NCBI GenBank assembly: GCA_025340205.1
Contig: CP006868.1
Location: forward strand, 840,001-872,000
DNA: 32,000 nt
Origin: Ignicoccus pacificus DSM 13166
GTDB taxonomy: Archaea; Thermoproteota; Thermoprotei_A; Sulfolobales; Ignicoccaceae
Direction: 5' to 3'
The translations under genes were made by a program, and so were the position numbers. The notes below the pieces were generated by a model. The model saw only the letters and a list, made by a program, of their open reading frames with translations. It was not told the DNA's origin and did no database searches. Shown here piece after piece: positions 8,647 to 21,863 of this stretch (position 1 is the stretch's first letter; every line of letters starts with the position of its first letter).

Positions 8647-8991
8647 CTAGTCTTCTCTTATTAGTATGTAGATCCAAGGCTTTCCCCCACTCCGACAGCA
8701 CTTTAAGCCTACTAGTAGCGGGTAACAGAGACCTTTTTCTTTTATTATGTGATAGCTCCACGAGATCAAGGGCAAAAGAGTCAGCGTTATGTTTACCTTA
8801 TGTGTTAATACTAAGTACATTAATGTGAAAGCCCTCACTATCGTGAAATCGAGGGATGAGAAAAGTAGGGGTAGGGTAGGATTGTCAGAGAAAATCAATA
8901 CTAGGGCCACCGAGAGTTCAATGAAATAACAGAAGAGGGCTCCCAGTGGACTAGGAGCAATCATCTCATCAGCACTCGGGTTCTTCGTCAT
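8647..8991 (-). CDS. Small integral membrane protein (2-3 TM), unknown function
   Basis: The ATG overlaps the queC stop (ATGA). The N-terminal two thirds are hydrophobic (LGALFCYFIELSVALVLIF, LPLLFSSLDFTIVRAFTLMYLVL). Confidence 0.45.
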   Translation of the reverse strand: MTKNPSADEMIAPSPLGALFCYFIELSVALVLIFSDNPTLPLLFSSLDFTIVRAFTLMYLVLTHKVNITLTLLPLISWSYHIIKEKGLCYPLLVGLKCCRSGGKPWIYILIRED

Positions 8992-9758
8992 CGCCCCCTC
9001 TTATTCAACCACTCCCTATACCACTCGGGGAGATCTTCGTAACTATCTGTTAGAGGATCCGGAACGCTTGCCTCCATGAAAGCTCTAAGCCTTGTGTAAC
9101 AAGCTGGACACCTACCACAAGGTCTTTCTCCTCCTCTATAACATGTCCAAGTGAGCTCGAGTGGAACGTTGAGCTCTAAAGCAGTCTTAACTATGTCTGA
9201 TTTCCTCCGATGTATGAATGGAGCATAGATCTTTATGTATGCTTCTTTACCTTGTTTCTTAGCGTTGAATACTATAGAGGATCCTTCGTTTATGGCCCTT
9301 TCTACGGCCTCGACGAATTCAGGCCTCGTATCAGGGTAAACCGGCTCGCCGGGCTCGTAGTCCGTTCTGTGAAAGCCCACAGAGATTACACCCTTCGTCT
9401 CATCAAATTCGATCATATGCTTCTCTAAAACTGCGGCTGCCGAGGAGAGAAGCACTAGGTTTCTTTGAGGAACGTACGTGGGAGGGACCAGCCCTGGTAC
9501 TATGCTCTCAGCCTTAGGTAACTCTCCTTTAAGGAGAGCAGATGCATCGGCTATCTTGAATATATTAGAAAGATCCAAAATTATGTGTTCTGCTTTATAG
9601 AACCTAGCTATAGCCTTAGCCGATTCTATTTCTCTTTTATGGCGTTGACCATATATTACGGTTAATGCTATAGCTTTCTTAGGCTTGAACTCATTTAGCG
9701 CCTTCGCAAAGGCAGTAGCCGAATCCATGCCTCCCGAGACGAGACCAACGAGTATCAT
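8988..9758 (-). CDS. queC: 7-cyano-7-deazaguanine (preQ0) synthase QueC
   Basis: The N-terminal PP-loop LVSGGMDS and the C-terminal zinc motif C-x-C-x2-C (CYRGGERPCGRCPACYTR) fit QueC, as does the overall length. Confidence 0.9.
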   Translation of the reverse strand: MILVGLVSGGMDSATAFAKALNEFKPKKAIALTVIYGQRHKREIESAKAIARFYKAEHIILDLSNIFKIADASALLKGELPKAESIVPGLVPPTYVPQRNLVLLSSAAAVLEKHMIEFDETKGVISVGFHRTDYEPGEPVYPDTRPEFVEAVERAINEGSSIVFNAKKQGKEAYIKIYAPFIHRRKSDIVKTALELNVPLELTWTCYRGGERPCGRCPACYTRLRAFMEASVPDPLTDSYEDLPEWYREWLNKRGR

Positions 9759-12020: not shown

Positions 12021-13187
12021 TTACTCTTTGATTATTTTTAGCTCTTTTAGGTACTTGAGCATGTCATAGTATGCCTTGATCCTAGCTTCGTTCTTTGCAT
12101 TCTTAGGACCGGGATTCTTCATGTAGAATGCGTTGACTTCATAGCAAGTACCCTTAACTCCTCTCTCCATTAGTGCCTTAGAGAGTCTTGCTAGGTCCAC
12201 AGCCAGACCGGCTAGGGCAGGAGAATCGTTAATCCTCATGTTCACTATTAACTCATCTACAAGACCGTTGAACGTAATCCACTCTATGTCCATAGCCACG
12301 AACTTTCTGTCACCTATAGCCTCGACGTACCCTGTGGGCCTAATGTAGTGAGGGGCATCGTAACCCAAGATATCTTCCACGATACTGGATTTCGTTTTTT
12401 CCTTCATTAAGTTCCTCTCAGGTATAGTCAACGCTAGGAAGTCTGTGTTTCCGCCTATGTTGAATTGTACTATGAATCGTATTAATCTATTCCTTTCGGC
12501 TAGATGTTCAAGTAGATCAGCGGTTAAGGGAGTTGCACCGGTGGCGCCATCGTCTCCGAGTAGTAAGGAGTTGGTCTCTGCGAACAAGTTTACCATTACT
12601 GGATCGTTAGCTAGAGGGGTAGGTATGAGGTTAATGAATGCAATTTGCTTGCCGGTATCCTTAGATGCTAAGTAGGTAGCGTAGGCATAGGCTTGAGCGG
12701 CGCTAGCCTTTCCTTCTTTTATCCTCTTTAGTAGCTCTTCTTCAGATCTAAAGGGTTCGGCAGGCTCTGTTGAGATTAAGTTAAAGACAACGTCGATGGA
12801 GTCTTTTTTCAATTCATTAGCTATTTCTTCTATGGCTTCCATAGGCTCAATTTCTTGATCTCTTCCGGAAACCGGAAAGAGTTTGTCAAGTCCCGCAGCG
12901 GAACCCATGAGGAGGCCCTTACGTACTTCGGTTTCCGGTAAGCTGGAGGGCAAAGGAATTACGTCCTTTAAGGATTCAGTTACGATATCCCTTACACTTT
13001 TGCCTACCTTCCTAGTGTCGACGTCATAAACGCTTACTATCTCTTCTTCTAAGAAGTCAACCGCTAAGTCGTACTTTGCCAAGGGAACACCGTAAGGTTT
13101 CATGGAACCTTCTTTGAGCCTGTAGAGGCCCACTATGTAGTGTGAGGCCACTAAACCCATTCCGAAAATCGATACCTTAACTACCAT
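12021..13187 (-). CDS. ino1: myo-inositol-1-phosphate synthase
   Basis: An N-terminal Rossmann-like fold (VSIFGMGLVASHY), LLGDDGATGATPL and QFNIGGNTDF are hallmark motifs of archaeal/bacterial MIPS. Confidence 0.9.
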   Translation of the reverse strand: MVVKVSIFGMGLVASHYIVGLYRLKEGSMKPYGVPLAKYDLAVDFLEEEIVSVYDVDTRKVGKSVRDIVTESLKDVIPLPSSLPETEVRKGLLMGSAAGLDKLFPVSGRDQEIEPMEAIEEIANELKKDSIDVVFNLISTEPAEPFRSEEELLKRIKEGKASAAQAYAYATYLASKDTGKQIAFINLIPTPLANDPVMVNLFAETNSLLLGDDGATGATPLTADLLEHLAERNRLIRFIVQFNIGGNTDFLALTIPERNLMKEKTKSSIVEDILGYDAPHYIRPTGYVEAIGDRKFVAMDIEWITFNGLVDELIVNMRINDSPALAGLAVDLARLSKALMERGVKGTCYEVNAFYMKNPGPKNAKNEARIKAYYDMLKYLKELKIIKE

Positions 13188-13216
13188 GTGCTACCTACCG
13201 ATAGAGGTAGTTGAGT

Positions 13217-13229
13217 GAAATATAAAGGG
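13217..13229 (-). promoter_or_regulatory. TATA box (CCCTTTATATTTC on the - strand) for ino1
   Basis: AT-rich element centred about 36 nt upstream of the ino1 ATG (13187), followed by the inverted repeat at 13191-13210. Confidence 0.45.
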
Positions 13230-13250
13230 ATGTAGATCGCATACAGACGG

Positions 13251-14555
13251 TTACTTCCTCCTCCTTCCTCCTCCCCTTCTCTTTCCTCCCTTCCTTCTGG
13301 GAGGTCTTCTTCCTCCTCTCTTTCTCGCTGGCGGTGCTTTTCTCTCTGCCTTTTCCTCCCTCTTGGGAGGCTTCTGATACACTCTCTTTATCTCGTCGAT
13401 CCTTGCTCTTAATTCTTCCTTGAGCTTCTCACCTATGTCCCTCCCGGTGAAGTAGTCCGTTCTCGCTGCTATCGCCAGCTTAGCAGCTAGCGCTCTAGCT
13501 ATCTTACCTCTCTGCCACTTAGGGGATCTGTGTATATCAGGGTATTGGAAGATTATTCCGTGCTTAGGAGGCTTTCCGCCCGTCCTAAGGGCTCTGAATA
13601 ACGCCTTCTCCGCTCCTAGCACTTGGATTGTAGAAGCCGGCATGCGTGCTAAGTTCTCCAAGCTTCCAGCTAGTGAGATGAGTCTCGCTCCGAGCACGGG
13701 ACCCACTAGCGCCGTCACGTTGGGTGCCACTTCCTTCATTATGTAGCTTATATAATCAACTAGCTCTCTCCTCAATGAGTACAAGTCTTCTACGATGGAT
13801 GCAAGCTTTTGAAGTTGTTCCAAATCGGTTTCAGTTAGGTCCGCTCCTGTACTCTTCTTAGCAGCTTCGGCTATCTTTTCAGCTAAGTCCTCCTTCAGAC
13901 CCAGCTCCTTGAGTCTCTCGACAGTCATGGCGTCTCTGCTTCCTATTTCAGCCACTATTCTAGCGTAGAGGTCGTGATCTTTCACGAGGTCGTCCAGTTC
14001 AGGGAAATGAAGGCTGTACCATTCTCTAAGTCTAGCAATTAATAGGTTGATGATTTTGTCGATGTCATCTATAGTTCTGACGGCGTGAACCGCCAGCAGA
14101 TCTCTCTTCTGGGCGACACTCCTAAGCTTCCTCCTAACTACTTCGATGGTTAGCTTATGTAACCAATCATAGAATTCCTCCTTAGATTCCATCATTCCAT
14201 ATTTTACGCTCAACTCAGCTACATTCTCTCTAACGTATATTGCCTTGTCATTGGCTGGAACCACCTTCACTTCGAAGCCCATTGAACTAGCCTCTCTGGA
14301 TTCGCCTTCGGTCTCGAAGACTATGGTTCCCTCGAATCCCTCCTCCTTTAAGTTCTCAAGCAATCTCTTAGCAGCACTAGAAAGTCCTCCTACCTTCTCG
14401 GTACCTTCCTTGATTCCCCTAGTCCATCCTTCGATGACCATAGCCTCTTGGACAGCTTGGTCAATGTCTTTCGGATTCGGCTCGAAGCGCTCTACTTCGT
14501 TATTTTCATTTACTAAGAAAGCTCCAACGGCGTGTTGTACCAGCCACTTCTCCAA
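13251..14555 (-). CDS. nop5: C/D box sRNP core protein Nop5 (Nop56/58) with an Arg/Gly/Lys-rich C-terminal tail
   Basis: TTG start. The coiled-coil and NOP domain motifs are present (LREWYSLHFPEL, APNVTALVGPVLGARLISLAGSLENLARMPASTIQVLGAEKALFRAL...KHGIIFQ). The tail is KRGGRRPPRRKGGKRRGGGRRRK. Confidence 0.9.
   Translation of the reverse strand: MEKWLVQHAVGAFLVNENNEVERFEPNPKDIDQAVQEAMVIEGWTRGIKEGTEKVGGLSSAAKRLLENLKEEGFEGTIVFETEGESREASSMGFEVKVVPANDKAIYVRENVAELSVKYGMMESKEEFYDWLHKLTIEVVRRKLRSVAQKRDLLAVHAVRTIDDIDKIINLLIARLREWYSLHFPELDDLVKDHDLYARIVAEIGSRDAMTVERLKELGLKEDLAEKIAEAAKKSTGADLTETDLEQLQKLASIVEDLYSLRRELVDYISYIMKEVAPNVTALVGPVLGARLISLAGSLENLARMPASTIQVLGAEKALFRALRTGGKPPKHGIIFQYPDIHRSPKWQRGKIARALAAKLAIAARTDYFTGRDIGEKLKEELRARIDEIKRVYQKPPKREEKAERKAPPARKRGGRRPPRRKGGKRRGGGRRRK
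13254..13298. repeat. 45-nt uninterrupted polypyrimidine (+) / polypurine (-) tract
   Basis: Read directly from the sequence; only C and T occur on the + strand. It encodes the RGG/K tail of Nop5 (AGG/GGA/AAG/AGA codons). Confidence 0.8.
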
Positions 14556-14588
14556 ATCGTTCTACCCTCACGAGGCCTCAAAGTAATC

Positions 14589-14599
14589 CCCTATATAGG
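14589..14599 (-). promoter_or_regulatory. TATA box (CCTATATAGGG) upstream of nop5
   Basis: Located about 40 nt upstream of the TTG start at 14555, in the 53-nt spacer after the upstream gene. Confidence 0.4.
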
Positions 14600-14608
14600 C
14601 TTGGGAGC

Positions 14609-15454
14609 TCACGAGATCTTTTCCAAGATCTCGTCTAATACATCCTCGAGCTTTTTCTTCGGTTTGTTGCATTTCTCCTCTATAATACTCTTTAACATGT
14701 TCCTATCTTTAGAGTTTAAGAAAATTTCTATGGCCCACTTTGTGTTAGGGGAGAGCGAAGCGCTGCTGTGATCAACGAAAAGCCTTCCTTCACTTAAAGC
14801 CTTCCTAAGATCTTCGCAAGTGGCCGTCGAGAGGAATTCCTTGAACTTATCCTCGAAGTCTACCGCTTTCCTCAGTTCTTTTTCGTTTAGCATATACCCA
14901 CAAACCATGCATGTGCCCGTGGGGTCCACCGCTCGAAATCCACACCTTGGACAGTAACCGACAGGTCCCGGTTCCCCGCGAAATCTCCAGGCCTCCTCCC
15001 AAGACGCTTGAAGTGGTCCGCTCAAATCTATGCCCAATCTTTTCATTTCTCTATAAAGTCTAGGTACGAAGGGAATTGAGAGTTCACCTATGTAACTTAC
15101 TACGAACTCTAATTGTTCGGGAGTTAACTCCCCCTCAGGTACTATTTCCAGAAGCTTCGCCGCCAACACGGCGAATATTCTCTTTTGATTACGTAATATG
15201 TTATTTACCAAGGTCTCAGCCTTAGGCTTCGTTACCCTATCTCCCATCAGCTGTACCAATAAGTCACGGAGTAATTCTATGACTTGATCATCGCTTAAGC
15301 CCAAGACGTCCAAGCCCAGCATGCTATAGACAGAGGGTGCTAGCTTCTCTGCAACGTGGACGGGATCCCACGTCCTCCTACGAACCCCACTTTTCCTCCT
15401 CTTAGTTCTTGTACTCTTTGAGCTCTTCTTGGTACTTCTCTTTCTCTTGGCCAC
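14609..15454 (-). CDS. Hypothetical protein with a highly basic N-terminal tail and an internal zinc ribbon
   Basis: GTG start. The N-terminus is MAKRKRSTKKSSKSTRTKRRKSGVRRR, and a CPRCG-x12-CMVCG four-Cys ribbon is present. No family is recognised. Confidence 0.6.
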   Translation of the reverse strand: MAKRKRSTKKSSKSTRTKRRKSGVRRRTWDPVHVAEKLAPSVYSMLGLDVLGLSDDQVIELLRDLLVQLMGDRVTKPKAETLVNNILRNQKRIFAVLAAKLLEIVPEGELTPEQLEFVVSYIGELSIPFVPRLYREMKRLGIDLSGPLQASWEEAWRFRGEPGPVGYCPRCGFRAVDPTGTCMVCGYMLNEKELRKAVDFEDKFKEFLSTATCEDLRKALSEGRLFVDHSSASLSPNTKWAIEIFLNSKDRNMLKSIIEEKCNKPKKKLEDVLDEILEKIS

Positions 15455-17759: not shown

Positions 17760-18530
17760 ATGATTAACGAAAACGTAGTGATAGCGGTAGCATATGCAAC
17801 ATTCTTAACGTTGTTCTATATAATAATAAAGAACAGGTATATAGAAACGATGGTAAAGAAGCAGATCATAACAACGGCGGGTGGCAAGGAGCTGAAAATG
17901 GTTATGGAGACAGCATATATAGTATTGTTGGTCATTGGAGTTTTCATTGCCCTAGTTGATATAAGGGCTTTGATATACTTGATCTTAACTGCGTTGGCAG
18001 TAATAGCAATAACATCTCATGATGTGATAAAGTCCATATTCTTATATTACATGATAGTTCTAACGAAAATGATTACACAAGGAGATTTCGTAATAATGGC
18101 AAGAGGTATCAGAGGGTGGGTGAAGAAGCTAACGCCATTCTACGTAGAACTTCATGGTGAGCATGGTGAGATAATCAGAATACCCAATATTTTAGCGGCT
18201 TCTGAGCCCGTTAGGGTACCTAGCAAGGCATTACCCTTTACTCTATTAATAAGGATTCATGGACAAGCTGAAATAAATGAAAAGGAACTCAGAGAGAAAT
18301 TAGATGAGGTCATAGCGTTTACAAAGAGGTTCTGCGTCACCTCACCTCATGTGAAGATCAGGTCTGTTGGTACAAACTTCGTGGAATATGAAGTAATTTA
18401 CGGACTTAGCAATTATGAAGCTTCAAACAGGATAATAGAGATCTTGTATAGCAAGTTAAAGGACGTTGTTAAGGAGATAAACGGGCAAATTGAGATTAGG
18501 CGCGAACACACAATAATGAGCAAGCTCTAA
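17760..18530 (+). CDS. MscS-like small-conductance mechanosensitive channel family protein
   Basis: Three N-terminal TM helices are followed by ITQGDFVIMARGIRGWVKKLTPFYVELHGEHGEIIRIPNILAASEPVRV, which matches the MS_channel beta-domain pattern (GD.I...G..G.V..I....T.L....G....IPN). ATG 17760 is preceded by GAGGTGAGG. GTG 17751 overlaps the trkA-like stop. Confidence 0.6.
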   Translation: MINENVVIAVAYATFLTLFYIIIKNRYIETMVKKQIITTAGGKELKMVMETAYIVLLVIGVFIALVDIRALIYLILTALAVIAITSHDVIKSIFLYYMIVLTKMITQGDFVIMARGIRGWVKKLTPFYVELHGEHGEIIRIPNILAASEPVRVPSKALPFTLLIRIHGQAEINEKELREKLDEVIAFTKRFCVTSPHVKIRSVGTNFVEYEVIYGLSNYEASNRIIEILYSKLKDVVKEINGQIEIRREHTIMSKL

Positions 18531-18937: not shown

Positions 18938-20140
18938 GTGAGCTGTAACGGTTTCGTCGCGCATAGTGAGCCGGAAGTCGAGGGCGTCACCTTTTACATT
19001 TACATAACTTGTAAGGGTAATACCAAGTACGAATATGTCCTTCCTCGCATGGTTAGCGATGTCTTAAGTGATGAAAGACAATATGATATGATAATTTTGA
19101 GGAGATCGAGGAACTTAAAGAAAATTAGATTGAACGTTGAGAGGTCGGTCATAGAGATTCAAACTGATAGTAAGGATCCCCTCGCGATGATCCTCTCCTT
19201 ATGGGTCTATACCGGTAAGATGCTCTATCCTCTTCTTTTCGATGTCGACATAGTGAAAGGTTTGACTAGGTCTTTTGAATTAGTAGATCTAAAGGGCGAA
19301 ACACTTAGGGAAAGGTCTGGGATAGTGCTTACAAGCAAGAAGAACCTAGTAGACGTTCGTGATATGCGAAATTATAGCATTGTTTTGAAGTCGGTAAAAG
19401 CCAGCTGTTCAGACGTTTCTATCTACCCTAGCAGATCGCTCGTTTTAGGTCATAGAAATAAGGTCTACTTCATGCAATTGGGAAGTAGCCGCGAGCGCGT
19501 CGTCGAGTTCAATGAGAACGTAAGAAGGTGCGCAATATTCCCCTATGCTAGACTAATCGCAGCTGCCACCAGAGGAGAGGTTTCGCTTCACTACTACAAG
19601 GGAGGAGAGTGGAAGGTTCGTGGACGCTTCCCTGTAGTGATGCCCAAGTCTCTTGAGTGGTGTCTCTTCGCAGGTAAGATATCATTGGGTGTCGACTTGG
19701 TGGGGAAGTATAGTATAATAACGATTGATGGTGATTATACCAGCATAGAACTCGGAAAACCACTCATGGCCAAAATATCACCATTTGGAGATAAACTGGC
19801 AGTTGCTTACCCGAAGAAATTAGTGATACTGGATGTGGAGAAAGCCGAGCCAATAATAGAAGTTCAAGTTGATGAAGTTCAAACGATGAGTTGGAGTCCT
19901 TACGGCGACTACCTCGCCTTCTGTACTCGAAACTCGTGTAGCATATACTCTGATTTAACTGAAAGTATCGTCATCGGGAAACCCATAAGAGGTGTGAGGT
20001 GGAGTTGGTGGAGCCCTCACACCTTGTCATTATATCTACAAACAGAAAATGGAACGAAGCTCATCTACTTCGATCCTCAAATGGTGAGCAGCAAGAAAGT
20101 AGCAGTTCGTCTCCCCACTTACTTAAGAACAAAGGCATAG
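18938..20140 (+). CDS. Hypothetical protein, C-terminal half beta-propeller/WD40-like
   Basis: GTG start preceded by GAGGGAGCGAGGGGA. WD-like strands include VQTMSWSPYGDYLAFCTRNSCSIYS and ISPFGDKLAVAYPKKLVILD. The 3' end overlaps the convergent sirC-like ORF by 80 nt. Confidence 0.55.
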   Translation: MSCNGFVAHSEPEVEGVTFYIYITCKGNTKYEYVLPRMVSDVLSDERQYDMIILRRSRNLKKIRLNVERSVIEIQTDSKDPLAMILSLWVYTGKMLYPLLFDVDIVKGLTRSFELVDLKGETLRERSGIVLTSKKNLVDVRDMRNYSIVLKSVKASCSDVSIYPSRSLVLGHRNKVYFMQLGSSRERVVEFNENVRRCAIFPYARLIAAATRGEVSLHYYKGGEWKVRGRFPVVMPKSLEWCLFAGKISLGVDLVGKYSIITIDGDYTSIELGKPLMAKISPFGDKLAVAYPKKLVILDVEKAEPIIEVQVDEVQTMSWSPYGDYLAFCTRNSCSIYSDLTESIVIGKPIRGVRWSWWSPHTLSLYLQTENGTKLIYFDPQMVSSKKVAVRLPTYLRTKA

Positions 20141-20816
20141 CCTTGCTCGGTTCATAGCCTCTTATACCGGCTTCTTTGGTAGCTATCTCGATTGCCTTAT
20201 ATAAAGCATCTTCGATTCTCCCTTCTTTGATAAACCTAATTACATCATCGTTAAGCATCACGTACCAGTAGAGATGATATCTGTCCTTGGCATCTTTTAT
20301 TCTATTCTTTAGCTCCTTCTTGAAAAGCTTAGCAAAGCGATTTATGTTCTTCCAGAACGTGTTTCTTTTGAGACATTCTTCTATAAGATATTGAGCTATG
20401 TGTGCTGAGACTCCGGAAGCCCCCTCGCTACTTATAGCTATCCTTATTCCCTCCACTTCGCTTTCAAATGGTACGTGAACATCACTTCTGTTGGCATTAG
20501 TGGCGTCGTTAACCAGTATACCCATCTTCTTTGCAACCGAGAATATCTTATCGTTAATTTCGGGAACAGAGGTAGCGATGACCACAAGGAAAGCTCCGTT
20601 GATTAATTCCTCAATGGTCTTTTCATCCCTTAAATCAGCTTTAACCAATTCAACACCATCTAGTGACTTTAGCTCTTCACTGAAGTCCTTGGCTACTACG
20701 GTAACCTTAGCGCCGGCCTCTTTGAACTTCTTCGCTCTTCTTGTTCCTACGTGTCCTCCTCCGAACACTACTACCTTACGACCTTCTAGTGAGAGGAACA
20801 ATGGGACGCGCTTCAA
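20061..20816 (-). CDS. Precorrin-2 dehydrogenase / sirohydrochlorin ferrochelatase (siroheme synthase N-terminal domain type, SirC/CysG-N)
   Basis: TTG start. It has the motif GRKVVVFGGGHVGTRRAKKFKEAGAKVTVVA, and VVIATS...IND...A follows it. Both are typical of NAD-binding SirC/Met8-like proteins. Confidence 0.7.
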   Translation of the reverse strand: MKRVPLFLSLEGRKVVVFGGGHVGTRRAKKFKEAGAKVTVVAKDFSEELKSLDGVELVKADLRDEKTIEELINGAFLVVIATSVPEINDKIFSVAKKMGILVNDATNANRSDVHVPFESEVEGIRIAISSEGASGVSAHIAQYLIEECLKRNTFWKNINRFAKLFKKELKNRIKDAKDRYHLYWYVMLNDDVIRFIKEGRIEDALYKAIEIATKEAGIRGYEPSKAMPLFLSKWGDELLLSCCSPFEDRSR

Positions 20817-20933
20817 CTAGAGATGACACCCAAAGAGACGATCAAGAGGGAGTGTGAAAACCGGCGCGCAAGCCCGACCCATTCACCGCCTTCGGCGGCG
20901 TAGTCGAGCCGAGGAGGTGTCGGTGAATGATAT

Positions 20934-20941
20934 CTTTAAAT
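20934..20941. promoter_or_regulatory. Palindromic TATA element (CTTTAAAT / ATTTAAAG), candidate bidirectional promoter
   Basis: This is the only AT-rich element in a GC-rich 300-nt spacer. The predicted TSS about 26 nt to the right falls at the 5' end of the C/D sRNA (20964-20968). About 26 nt to the left it falls at 20910, the first base of a strong hairpin. Confidence 0.45.
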
Positions 20942-20967
20942 CCTAATGAGTCTTACCTCCCGTGTAC

Positions 20968-21024
20968 GGGAATGAGGACGTGGGCAGCCCCTGAAGAGTG
21001 ATGAGCCTAGTCTCACTCTGACCC
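20968..21024 (+). ncRNA. Box C/D guide sRNA (2'-O-methylation guide)
   Basis: GGG-A-[AUGAGGA = C box]-CGUGGGCAGCCC (12 nt)-[CUGA = D']-AGA-[GUGAUGA = C']-GCCUAGUCUCACU (13 nt)-[CUGA = D]-CCC. The terminal GGG/CCC stem, box order, guide lengths and 57-nt size match canonical archaeal C/D sRNAs. Confidence 0.6.
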
Positions 21025-21116
21025 TTCCATGGGAATACACAGAGAGAAGCGAGCTCTTGTAGAGTCACAGCGGGGCAACGCGGAATAGAGAGGGTATGTG
21101 GTGATAAGGAAAAAGG

Positions 21117-21863
21117 TTACTTGAGTCCCATACGGGCCTTCGCTTGTCTGCATCCCCTTCCGGTACACCTGGCGGCGATGTGACCGACCTTCTGTCCGGG
21201 TGGAGACTCCCTCGCACGGGTAGTCGGGAAGCTGGGGCTCTGATGACTTCCTCCTCCGTGGGGGTGATTGACCACGTTCATGGCGACGCCTCTTACTATA
21301 GGCCACTTCTTGGCCTTAGCCCTCCACTTGTAGTAGGAGTTACCAGCCTTTAGTAAGGGTTTCTCATCTCTACCGGCGCCCGCTACTATGCCTATAGTAG
21401 CCCTACACCTACCATCCACTTGCTTTACCTTACCACTGGGAAGCTGAATTATTACGTTTCTACCGCTCTTACCAACTACTATAGCGTAGGTCCCTCCAGC
21501 TCTGACCAGCTTGCCTCCATCGCCGGGCCTGAGCTCTATGTTAAACACTTGGGTACCCTCTGGGATGGCATTTAGCGGTAAGATGTTTCCGTTAGCGGGA
21601 GCGGCATTAGGACCTATCTGGAGCTTCTGACCCACGTACATACCCTCGCCAGCAGGAATCCAGAAGTCAGCGACGTTGGGAATTACCACGTGGGCGAGAG
21701 GCACCCATCTACCGGGGTCGTGCTTCATCTCTATTATGTAGCCCTCGTAAGTCTCACTAAGCTTGATGTTTGGATACTTTGCTGGAGCAACTCTCAGATG
21801 CGCCCTGTTCCTCCATTGAGGAGTTCCTCTACCATGGCGCTGCTGACGAAGCCTCTTTCCCAT
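21117..21863 (-). CDS. rpl2: 50S ribosomal protein L2 (uL2)
   Basis: GKRLRQQRHGRG...; GGGSHQSPSFPTT...; MNVVNHPHGGG is the hallmark uL2 motif. A T-rich stretch (TTTTTCC on the - strand) follows the stop. Confidence 0.95.
   Translation of the reverse strand: MGKRLRQQRHGRGTPQWRNRAHLRVAPAKYPNIKLSETYEGYIIEMKHDPGRWVPLAHVVIPNVADFWIPAGEGMYVGQKLQIGPNAAPANGNILPLNAIPEGTQVFNIELRPGDGGKLVRAGGTYAIVVGKSGRNVIIQLPSGKVKQVDGRCRATIGIVAGAGRDEKPLLKAGNSYYKWRAKAKKWPIVRGVAMNVVNHPHGGGSHQSPSFPTTRARESPPGQKVGHIAARCTGRGCRQAKARMGLK

Follow-up and report, generated by a model that had tools for sequence, protein, structure and literature searches.

The locus and the element

The stretch considered here comprises 32,000 nucleotides (nt) of Ignicoccus pacificus DSM 13166 (contig CP006868.1, positions 840,001 to 872,000), and is referred to below as the window. 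Its SirC protein matches that of I. pacificus DSM 13166 at 100% identity and the adjacent pantoate kinase matches IPA_05000 at 99%, which places the window in this species (order Desulfurococcales). Within it, a 300-nt spacer separates two genes of the - strand, those for ribosomal protein uL2 and for a SirC-like precorrin-2 dehydrogenase, and on the + strand of this spacer lies a compact element with the arrangement of an archaeal box C/D small RNA (sRNA). The element is very probably the I. pacificus orthologue of the Ignicoccus hospitalis sRNA sR33, with a D' guide that would direct 2'-O-methylation of U2552 (E. coli numbering) in 23S ribosomal RNA (rRNA) and a D guide that has no 16S or 23S target. 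The features of the element and its surroundings are collected in Table 1.

Table 1. Coordinates of the sRNA element, its candidate promoter and genes of the window discussed in the text
Feature	Position	Strand	Evidence or remark
Complete box C/D sRNA, 57-nt core	20968-21024	+	Orthologue of I. hospitalis sR33
Terminal stem 5' half GGG	20968-20970	+	Pairs with CCC 21022-21024; kept in IHOsR33
GGGA 5' segment	20968-20971	+	Sequence
Box C AUGAGGA, U5 to G variant	20972-20978	+	Identical variant in IHOsR33
D' guide CGUGGGCAGCCC, 12 nt	20979-20990	+	Pairs with 23S A-loop; +5 nucleotide A20986 opposite U2552
Box D' CUGA	20991-20994	+	Sequence; IHOsR33 alignment
D'-C' linker AGA, loop of K-loop	20995-20997	+	GCGA in IHOsR33
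Box C' GUGAUGA	20998-21004	+	GUGAUGU in IHOsR33
D guide GCCUAGUCUCACU, 13 nt, orphan guide	21005-21017	+	13/13 identical to IHOsR33
Box D CUGA	21018-21021	+	CCGA in IHOsR33
Terminal stem 3' half CCC	21022-21024	+	Pairs with GGG; IHOsR33 alignment
TATA box TTTAAA, candidate sRNA promoter	20935-20940	+	Centred 30.5 nt upstream of G20968
uL2 gene	21117-21863	-	Ribosomal_L2_C, 3.9e-47
SirC-like precorrin-2 dehydrogenase gene	20061-20816	-	NAD_binding_7, 6e-28
nop5	13251-14555	-	Nop domain, 1e-78

In the archaeal box C/D ribonucleoprotein (RNP), L7Ae binds the kink-turn of boxes C and D and the K-loop of boxes C' and D', a Nop5 dimer bridges both motifs, and fibrillarin acts as the methyltransferase on the nucleotide that faces the fifth base of the guide, counted upstream from box D or D'. 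Read directly, the + strand of 20968-21024 is GGGA/ATGAGGA/CGTGGGCAGCCC/CTGA/AGA/GTGATGA/GCCTAGTCTCACT/CTGA/CCC, which matches base for base the box order, the 12- and 13-nt guides, the 3-nt linker and the GGG/CCC stem set out in a preliminary description of this DNA. Boxes C and D are able to form a kink-turn, the only deviation being U5 to G in the C box AUGAGGA, so that a G.U pair replaces U.U. Box D' precedes box C' across a linker within the short range (3-9 nt) of a K-loop (CUGA-AGA-GUGAUGA, 20991-21004), the spacers from C to D' (12 nt) and from C' to D (13 nt) are of the length expected of guides (about 12 nt), and a short stem, GGG/CCC, closes the kink-turn. C boxes of the form UGAGGA are common among the I. 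hospitalis sRNAs covered from the published list (Dennis, Tripp, Lui, Lowe & Randau, 2015, BMC Genomics 16:632; PMC4644070). On its own, the sRNA has no fold more stable than those of shuffled sequences (z = +0.47), as is expected because guide regions are open.

Rarity of the pattern and covariance model score

A loose regular expression for the order C/D'/C'/D was run over both strands of the window, allowing one mismatch each in C and C', guides of 10-14 nt and a linker of 2-9 nt, with no terminal stem required. Its sole match was 20968-21024, against an expectation of 0.007 sites per simulated 32-kb window of matched dinucleotide content (2/300 simulations).

At gathering thresholds, a scan of the window with Rfam gave zero matches. 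The Rfam model RF00095 (snoPyro_CD), which is built on Pyrococcus C/D sRNAs, nevertheless covers exactly 20968-21024 on the + strand over its whole length (1-58/58) at 33.3 bits, with an E-value of 4e-5 for the 601 nt searched and 2e-3 for the whole window. The alignment has few gaps and leaves out neither the terminal stem nor any of the four boxes and two guide spacers. Comparison with an archaeal C/D covariance model had been proposed as a check in the preliminary description, and the model does align end to end, though below its gathering score of 45 bits; by that threshold, the element is placed in the general C/D class only and not in RF00095 itself.

How such a score is to be read can be judged from an I. 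hospitalis stretch, 263,994-284,761 (locus L020), in which IHOsR416 and IHOsR37 were found exactly at their published coordinates. Here the Rfam C/D models give IHOsR37 21-22 bits, the Rfam match at the listed position of IHOsR39 scores 22.5 bits, and IHOsR416 goes undetected. As verified I. hospitalis sRNAs score lower than the window element, its sub-threshold 33.3 bits is not evidence against an sRNA. Ignicoccus C/D boxes are degenerate relative to the Pyrococcus-based Rfam model, and the low scores of verified sRNAs imply that Rfam-based annotation would miss most Ignicoccus C/D sRNAs. Within L020, the RNA-seq-verified sR37 and sR416 occupy 18159-18220 and 20115-20183, with 21 bits or nothing from these models.

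An orthologue in Ignicoccus hospitalis

With RNA-seq, 128 box C/D sRNAs were identified in I. hospitalis (Dennis et al., 2015), among them IHOsR33 (Additional file 1; position 236,348, negative strand), which reads AGGGAATGAGGAAGTGGGCAGCCCCTGAGCGAGTGATGTGCCTAGTCTCACTCCGACCCCCGCTTG. The window sRNA and IHOsR33 align over their full length with both guides kept, and 53 of the 58 aligned columns are identical. Common to the two are the architecture, the C box AUGAGGA, 11 of the 12 bases of the D' guide, all 13 of the D guide and the GGG/CCC stem. The sharing of this C box and of both guides with an sRNA detected by RNA-seq bears out the identification as a box C/D sRNA in the preliminary description.

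All five differences fall outside the paired guide positions. The first base of the D' guide is C in I. pacificus and A in IHOsR33, both unpaired against a C in the target. Two more lie in the D'-C' linker (AGA against GCGA), where divergence is expected because the position is under no sequence constraint. The fourth is the last base of C' (A against U), and the fifth is the second base of box D (U against C). This last base stands opposite G5 of box C and makes a G.U pair in I. pacificus and a G-C pair in I. hospitalis; in both species, then, the variant kink-turn position is paired, in keeping with the earlier suggestion that the U5 to G change still permits a kink-turn.

Beyond the terminal stem, the sequences around the two genes do not align, and identity between the two SirC proteins is only 60%. 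Near-identity of the sRNA against this background indicates purifying selection on the boxes and on the two guides alike. We regard the element as the sR33 orthologue. The pair also shows cleanly how selection bears on guide bases alone: the one guide substitution is at the base that makes no pair with the target. Such conservation is general between the two Ignicoccus genomes, since a second sRNA of the window (described below) also has an I. hospitalis orthologue.

The D' guide and the 23S A-loop

The published target sheet (columns sRNA, D targets and D' targets) lists I. hospitalis sR33 with D = NP and D' = 23S U2826 (Dennis et al., 2015). In the text of the same paper, the A-loop site is equated with E. 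coli U2552, with modification predicted in five of the seven archaeal species; the site is printed there as 'U2526', evidently 2826. For Sulfolobus acidocaldarius, the predictions agree with measured methylation at the A-loop site. The I. hospitalis A-loop is GGGGCUGCCCGCCC (PMC4644070, Additional file 3 alignment), and its core, GGGCUGCCCGCCC, is shared by Ignicoccus, Pyrobaculum, Thermoproteus and Sulfolobus in the 23S alignment of that paper.

Duplexes were searched with RNAduplex against 467 nt of I. hospitalis 23S rRNA (3' part). The best duplex of the D' guide on this sequence is with the A-loop, GGGGCUGCCCGC, at -25.1 kcal/mol, and just 3 of 1000 shuffled guides pair equally well. Read 3' to 5', the guide C(box)-CCCGACGGGUGC pairs with 5'-GGGGCUGCCCGCC-3' of the A-loop in a 12-bp run made up of 10 Watson-Crick pairs (including that of the first box nucleotide), a G.U pair and a further Watson-Crick pair; the last position is a C/C mismatch. 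A20986, the fifth base of the guide counted upstream from box D', stands opposite the U of GGGGCU*G, which is U2552. There are thus nine consecutive Watson-Crick pairs covering the +5 position (ten with the first box base), where at least nine are called for.

The preliminary description had named the right nucleotide, the U of GGGCU*G, and had taken the target to be a perfect 12-mer complement of the guide, which it is not. The real target is GGGCUGCCCGC(C), with a G.U pair at guide position 10 and position 12 unpaired, and it is at this unpaired position alone that the D' guides of the two Ignicoccus species differ. The I. pacificus A-loop is presumably identical to that of I. hospitalis, and the sRNA is expected to guide 2'-O-methylation of U2552 in its own ribosome.

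Guides to the same nucleotide occur in several archaeal sRNAs, whose overall homology to the window sRNA is limited to the guide. S. acidocaldarius sR7, which is listed for 23S U2826 and carries GUGGGCAGCC, differs in that its A-loop guide occupies the D and not the D' position, its D' guide being directed to G2783 (Dennis et al., 2015). N. equitans sR10, also listed for U2826, has a D' guide, AGUGAACACCCU, that tracks its own A-loop in the same register; it differs in its partner D guide, which targets U2880. The D' guide of M. kandleri sR17, AGCGAACAACCG, likewise follows the 23S A-loop of its own species in this register, and appears to be complementary to it. In E. coli, the same A-loop nucleotide carries a 2'-O-methyl group (Um2552) placed by RlmE (RrmJ/FtsJ), and its loss leads to slower growth and reduced protein synthesis (reviewed in PMC7994747). 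The bacterial route differs in that a stand-alone methyltransferase recognises the site, whereas in the window sRNA specificity would come from the RNA guide. Um2552 of the A-loop is functionally important.

A conserved orphan D guide

The second guide, GCCUAGUCUCACU, would be expected to target AGUGA*GACUAGGC. This target had been put forward in the preliminary description, and of that proposal the guide itself stands (present, 13 nt), while no counterpart of the target was found in I. hospitalis 16S or 23S rRNA. Dennis et al., 2015 give no 16S or 23S target for the D guide of sR33 (listed NP). Six 7- to 8-mers of the expected target are all absent from I. hospitalis rRNA in the supplementary alignments, and across the rRNA alignments of seven species the 7-mers occur only at a site in E. 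coli or M. kandleri that is unrelated. In the window, the search gave nothing except the antisense of the gene itself, and in 24 loci (~315 kb including the window, with ~60 kb of Ignicoccus DNA) there were chance-level matches only. A literature search with the guide sequence returned unrelated primers only. Among candidate targets, tRNA and helix II of 5S rRNA were considered, crenarchaeal 5S rRNA containing AGUGAG.

Within the 467 nt of I. hospitalis 23S rRNA, the D guide pairs best with CGUGAGACAGGUC (GUGAGAC-AGG, E. coli 2595-2604) at -16.5 kcal/mol: seven Watson-Crick pairs, +5 among them, then a bulged base of the guide and four more pairs, at a distance of 46 nt from U2552. This 23S site, GUGAGACAGG, was rejected as a D-guide target: at least as good a duplex is made by 116 of 1000 shuffled guides, so it does not exceed chance.

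An rRNA target for the second guide is not needed for membership of the class, given that one third of the sRNAs in the published set (163/489) lack one; many guides of this kind match tRNAs or 5S rRNA, data that were not compiled there (Dennis et al., 2015). The D guide therefore appears to be a conserved orphan. Part of its constraint could be structural, since GAGUGA (linker and C') is complementary to UCACUC (3' end of the guide and box D) in both species.

Another box C/D sRNA of the window is encoded at ~8935-8997 on the - strand and reads GGGGC/GAUGACGA/AGAACCCGAGUG/CUGA/UGA/GAUGAUU/GCUCCUAGUCCAC/UGGGA/GCCC. It has a non-canonical D box and was nearly missed by the regular expression and by Rfam (sR46 model, 18.8 bits), and the stop codon of queC falls inside its C box. 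It corresponds to I. hospitalis sR439, with the D' guide identical at 12/12 positions and the D guide nearly so. Both guides of I. hospitalis sR439 are without an rRNA target (NP/NP; Dennis et al., 2015). Selection on an orphan guide, the sole non-routine feature of the sR33 orthologue, is shared by the sR439 orthologue of the window, and comparison of two Ignicoccus species would be a cheap way to pick out orphan guides under selection. We tentatively suggest, while thinking the opposite somewhat more probable, that the conserved D guide and the sR439 guides mark an Ignicoccus guide set that methylates non-rRNA substrates such as tRNA, 5S rRNA, other non-coding RNA or mRNA.

Promoter and position of the gene in relatives

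The TATA box proposed in the preliminary description is present as TTTAAA, centred 30.5 nt upstream of the 5' end, and the flanking genes named there, rpl2 and sirC, are recovered as uL2 and the SirC-like gene. TTTAAA occurs at three sites in the whole 32-kb window, and the chance of one starting within a given 10-nt interval is ~0.001-0.01. We consider it the likely promoter of the sRNA; being palindromic, it could also serve the divergent sirC. Immediately upstream of it, at 20880-20929, two perfectly matched 9-bp arms, CATTCACCG...CGGTGAATG, form an inverted repeat around a GC-rich spacer of 32 nt that holds a CCGCC-UUCG-GCGG hairpin (+ strand fold, z = -1.8). The repeat could be a regulator binding site or, if the TATA box is bidirectional, belong to a long leader of sirC. 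A T5 run on the - strand (21110-21114) directly follows the uL2 stop codon, so that the uL2 transcript should end before reaching the element.

Nine loci recovered from a contig search with uL2 as the query lack the C/D pattern, and synteny downstream of L2 is not kept among them. Upstream, I. islandicus (L022), a metagenome-assembled genome (MAG) with a 91% identical L2 (L014) and a vent metagenome contig (86%; L015/L016) share the order DUF711, aconitase-like, GNAT, CoaBC, pantoate kinase, L2. Directly downstream of L2, these three carry a tRNA-Ser(GCU) gene (region 11588-11870 in L022, 10824-10911 in L014 and 7057-7144 in L015) in place of the sRNA and sirC, and their spacers (L022, L014 and L015) have no similarity to that of the window. 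The relatives' tRNA-Ser implies that the I. pacificus arrangement is a rearrangement with its breakpoint right after uL2. In L014, the tRNA-Ser is followed by a Phage_integr_3 integrase gene; no remnant of a tRNA-Ser and no attachment (att) site was found in the window spacer.

The genomic neighbourhood of sR33 is likewise not conserved between the two Ignicoccus genomes. In I. hospitalis, sirC lies at ~432 kb (stretch 422-443 kb, L012) and pantoate kinase at ~274 kb (L020, 264-285 kb), neither of them near sR33 at 236,348, whereas the window copy sits between uL2 and sirC. One of the outcomes that the preliminary description had named as refuting it, a lack of conservation of the boxes in orthologous spacers, is in fact observed, as the relatives have tRNA-Ser downstream of L2; it is outweighed by the conservation of the sRNA at a non-syntenic site in I. 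hospitalis. The guide to Um2552 of the A-loop is thus retained within the genus although its gene has been relocated. Pattern scans for homologues in metagenomes gave two matches, both by chance, in coding-like sequence without C' and D boxes, and the viral scans gave one chance match and none, respectively.

Proposed mechanism and alternative readings

Transcription of the sRNA most likely starts from a TATA promoter of its own, and the product would be trimmed to ~57-65 nt. Boxes C and D would fold into a kink-turn closed by the GGG/CCC stem, and C' and D' into a K-loop, with L7Ae on each motif and a Nop5 dimer bridging two fibrillarin subunits. The 12-nt D' guide is predicted to pair with helix 92 of 23S rRNA, along its 5' strand and loop (5'-GGGGCUGCCCGC-3'), which would position fibrillarin at the nucleotide opposite the fifth guide base upstream of D', that is U2552, the A-loop's first nucleotide, for 2'-O-methylation. 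The A-loop contacts the CCA end of the A-site tRNA, and in yeast snR52 and Spb1 act at the equivalent A-loop positions. The D guide probably either has a different stable RNA as its substrate, be it tRNA, 5S or some other, or does no more than aid assembly of the RNP.

Several points weigh against this reading. The + strand downstream of the element, as read in the sequence, has no T-rich terminator; the complementarity of the D' guide was computed on rRNA of the sister species I. hospitalis; the RF00095 score lies below the gathering score; one of the two guides is without an identified target; I. islandicus and two closer relatives have no sRNA beside L2; and the RNA-seq record is that of the orthologue IHOsR33 only, by analogy with which the window sRNA is presumably expressed. 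On the other side stand the anatomy, the statistical rarity, the homology, the TATA box and the complementarity to I. hospitalis 23S rRNA, all of them observed. The same evidence bears on whether the boxes came together by chance or are a decaying, unexpressed relic in a rearranged spacer. The Rfam score and the location of the element at a synteny break, where relatives have tRNA-Ser and an integrase gene, would fit such an origin, but 0.007 chance sites are expected per window even without the terminal stem, all four boxes are intact, as are the stem and a TATA box at the right distance, and the element is nearly identical to an expressed I. hospitalis sRNA with changes at unconstrained positions only, all of which makes this very improbable. 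Hardly credible, too, is an action on the - strand, as the 3' untranslated region of uL2, the 5' leader of sirC or a 41-aa open reading frame (ORF; 20943-21068, -). Both flanking genes are indeed on that strand, the ORF overlaps the element, and inspection by eye shows nothing TATA-like in the first ~55 nt upstream of sirC, which may therefore have a long leader. However, the boxes can be read as C/D only on the + strand, the - strand of the spacer is no more structured than its shuffles (z = -0.53), the T5 run should terminate uL2 transcription ahead of the element, and the I. hospitalis homologue, at 236 kb and away from sirC, shows conservation independent of these neighbours.

The remaining alternatives concern what the guides do. 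The main role of the sRNA might be that of an rRNA-folding chaperone using both guides, with methylation secondary: D' would hold the A-loop while D pairs imperfectly with the 23S site 46 nt downstream described above. About half of archaeal sRNAs are double guides with targets within 100 nt of each other, and a chaperone role has been proposed for them (Dennis et al., 2015). The D-guide site has 7 + 4 pairs around a bulge, yet such a duplex is matched or bettered by shuffled guides too often to stand out, it fails the published criteria (no bulges, at least nine consecutive Watson-Crick pairs), and conservation of 13/13 bases is hard to reconcile with an 11-base duplex that needs a bulge; we think this role unlikely. 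Close to an even chance, though slightly under it, is given to the D guide being the functionally important half, methylating an RNA other than 16S or 23S (tRNA, 5S rRNA, the RNAs of the signal recognition particle (SRP) or RNase P, a pre-rRNA spacer or an mRNA) that contains AGUGA*GACUAGGC. This is compatible with methylation of U2552 through the D' guide, to which it would add a second substrate. It would account for 13/13 identity where SirC is only 60% identical and the linker and flanks have diverged, it agrees with the many guides lacking rRNA targets that match tRNAs or 5S rRNA (Dennis et al., 2015), and the sR439 pair, with both guides NP, provides a second case. Set against it, no target was seen in the window, the 24 loci or the seven species' rRNA alignments, a search in which the Ignicoccus-clade tRNA covered was only the L2-adjacent tRNA-Ser of I. 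islandicus and two relatives, and the GAGUGA/UCACUC complementarity in both species could explain some of the conservation on structural grounds.

With methylation of U2552 as the preferred reading, the window sRNA is an ordinary member of the known box C/D family with a known target. It adds an unannotated, routine gene to the I. pacificus genome, in a genus whose species have more than 100 box C/D sRNAs each; among the papers searched, none describes I. pacificus sRNAs.

Further observations on neighbouring genes

In this Ignicoccus clade, the uL2 gene stands alone beside pantoate kinase and CoaBC, outside any ribosomal-protein operon. The proteins form a tight group (78-91% identity), with ordinary crenarchaeal L2 at 67% or less, and the window uL2 matches Pfam Ribosomal_L2_C only and not the N-terminal domain PF00181.

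The gene for Nop5, a core protein of the RNP, does lie in the window as the preliminary description had remarked. In many archaea, nop5 is followed by the fibrillarin gene. Here (window region 12021-15454) it is not, the downstream gene being that for myo-inositol-1-phosphate synthase, and upstream is a 281-aa ORF without a Pfam match. The sirC gene (-) and a convergent gene for a 400-aa beta-propeller-like protein (18938-20140, +) overlap at their 3' ends by ~80 nt (20061-20140), and a convergent 3' overlap of sirC is also found in I. hospitalis (L012 10695-10759).

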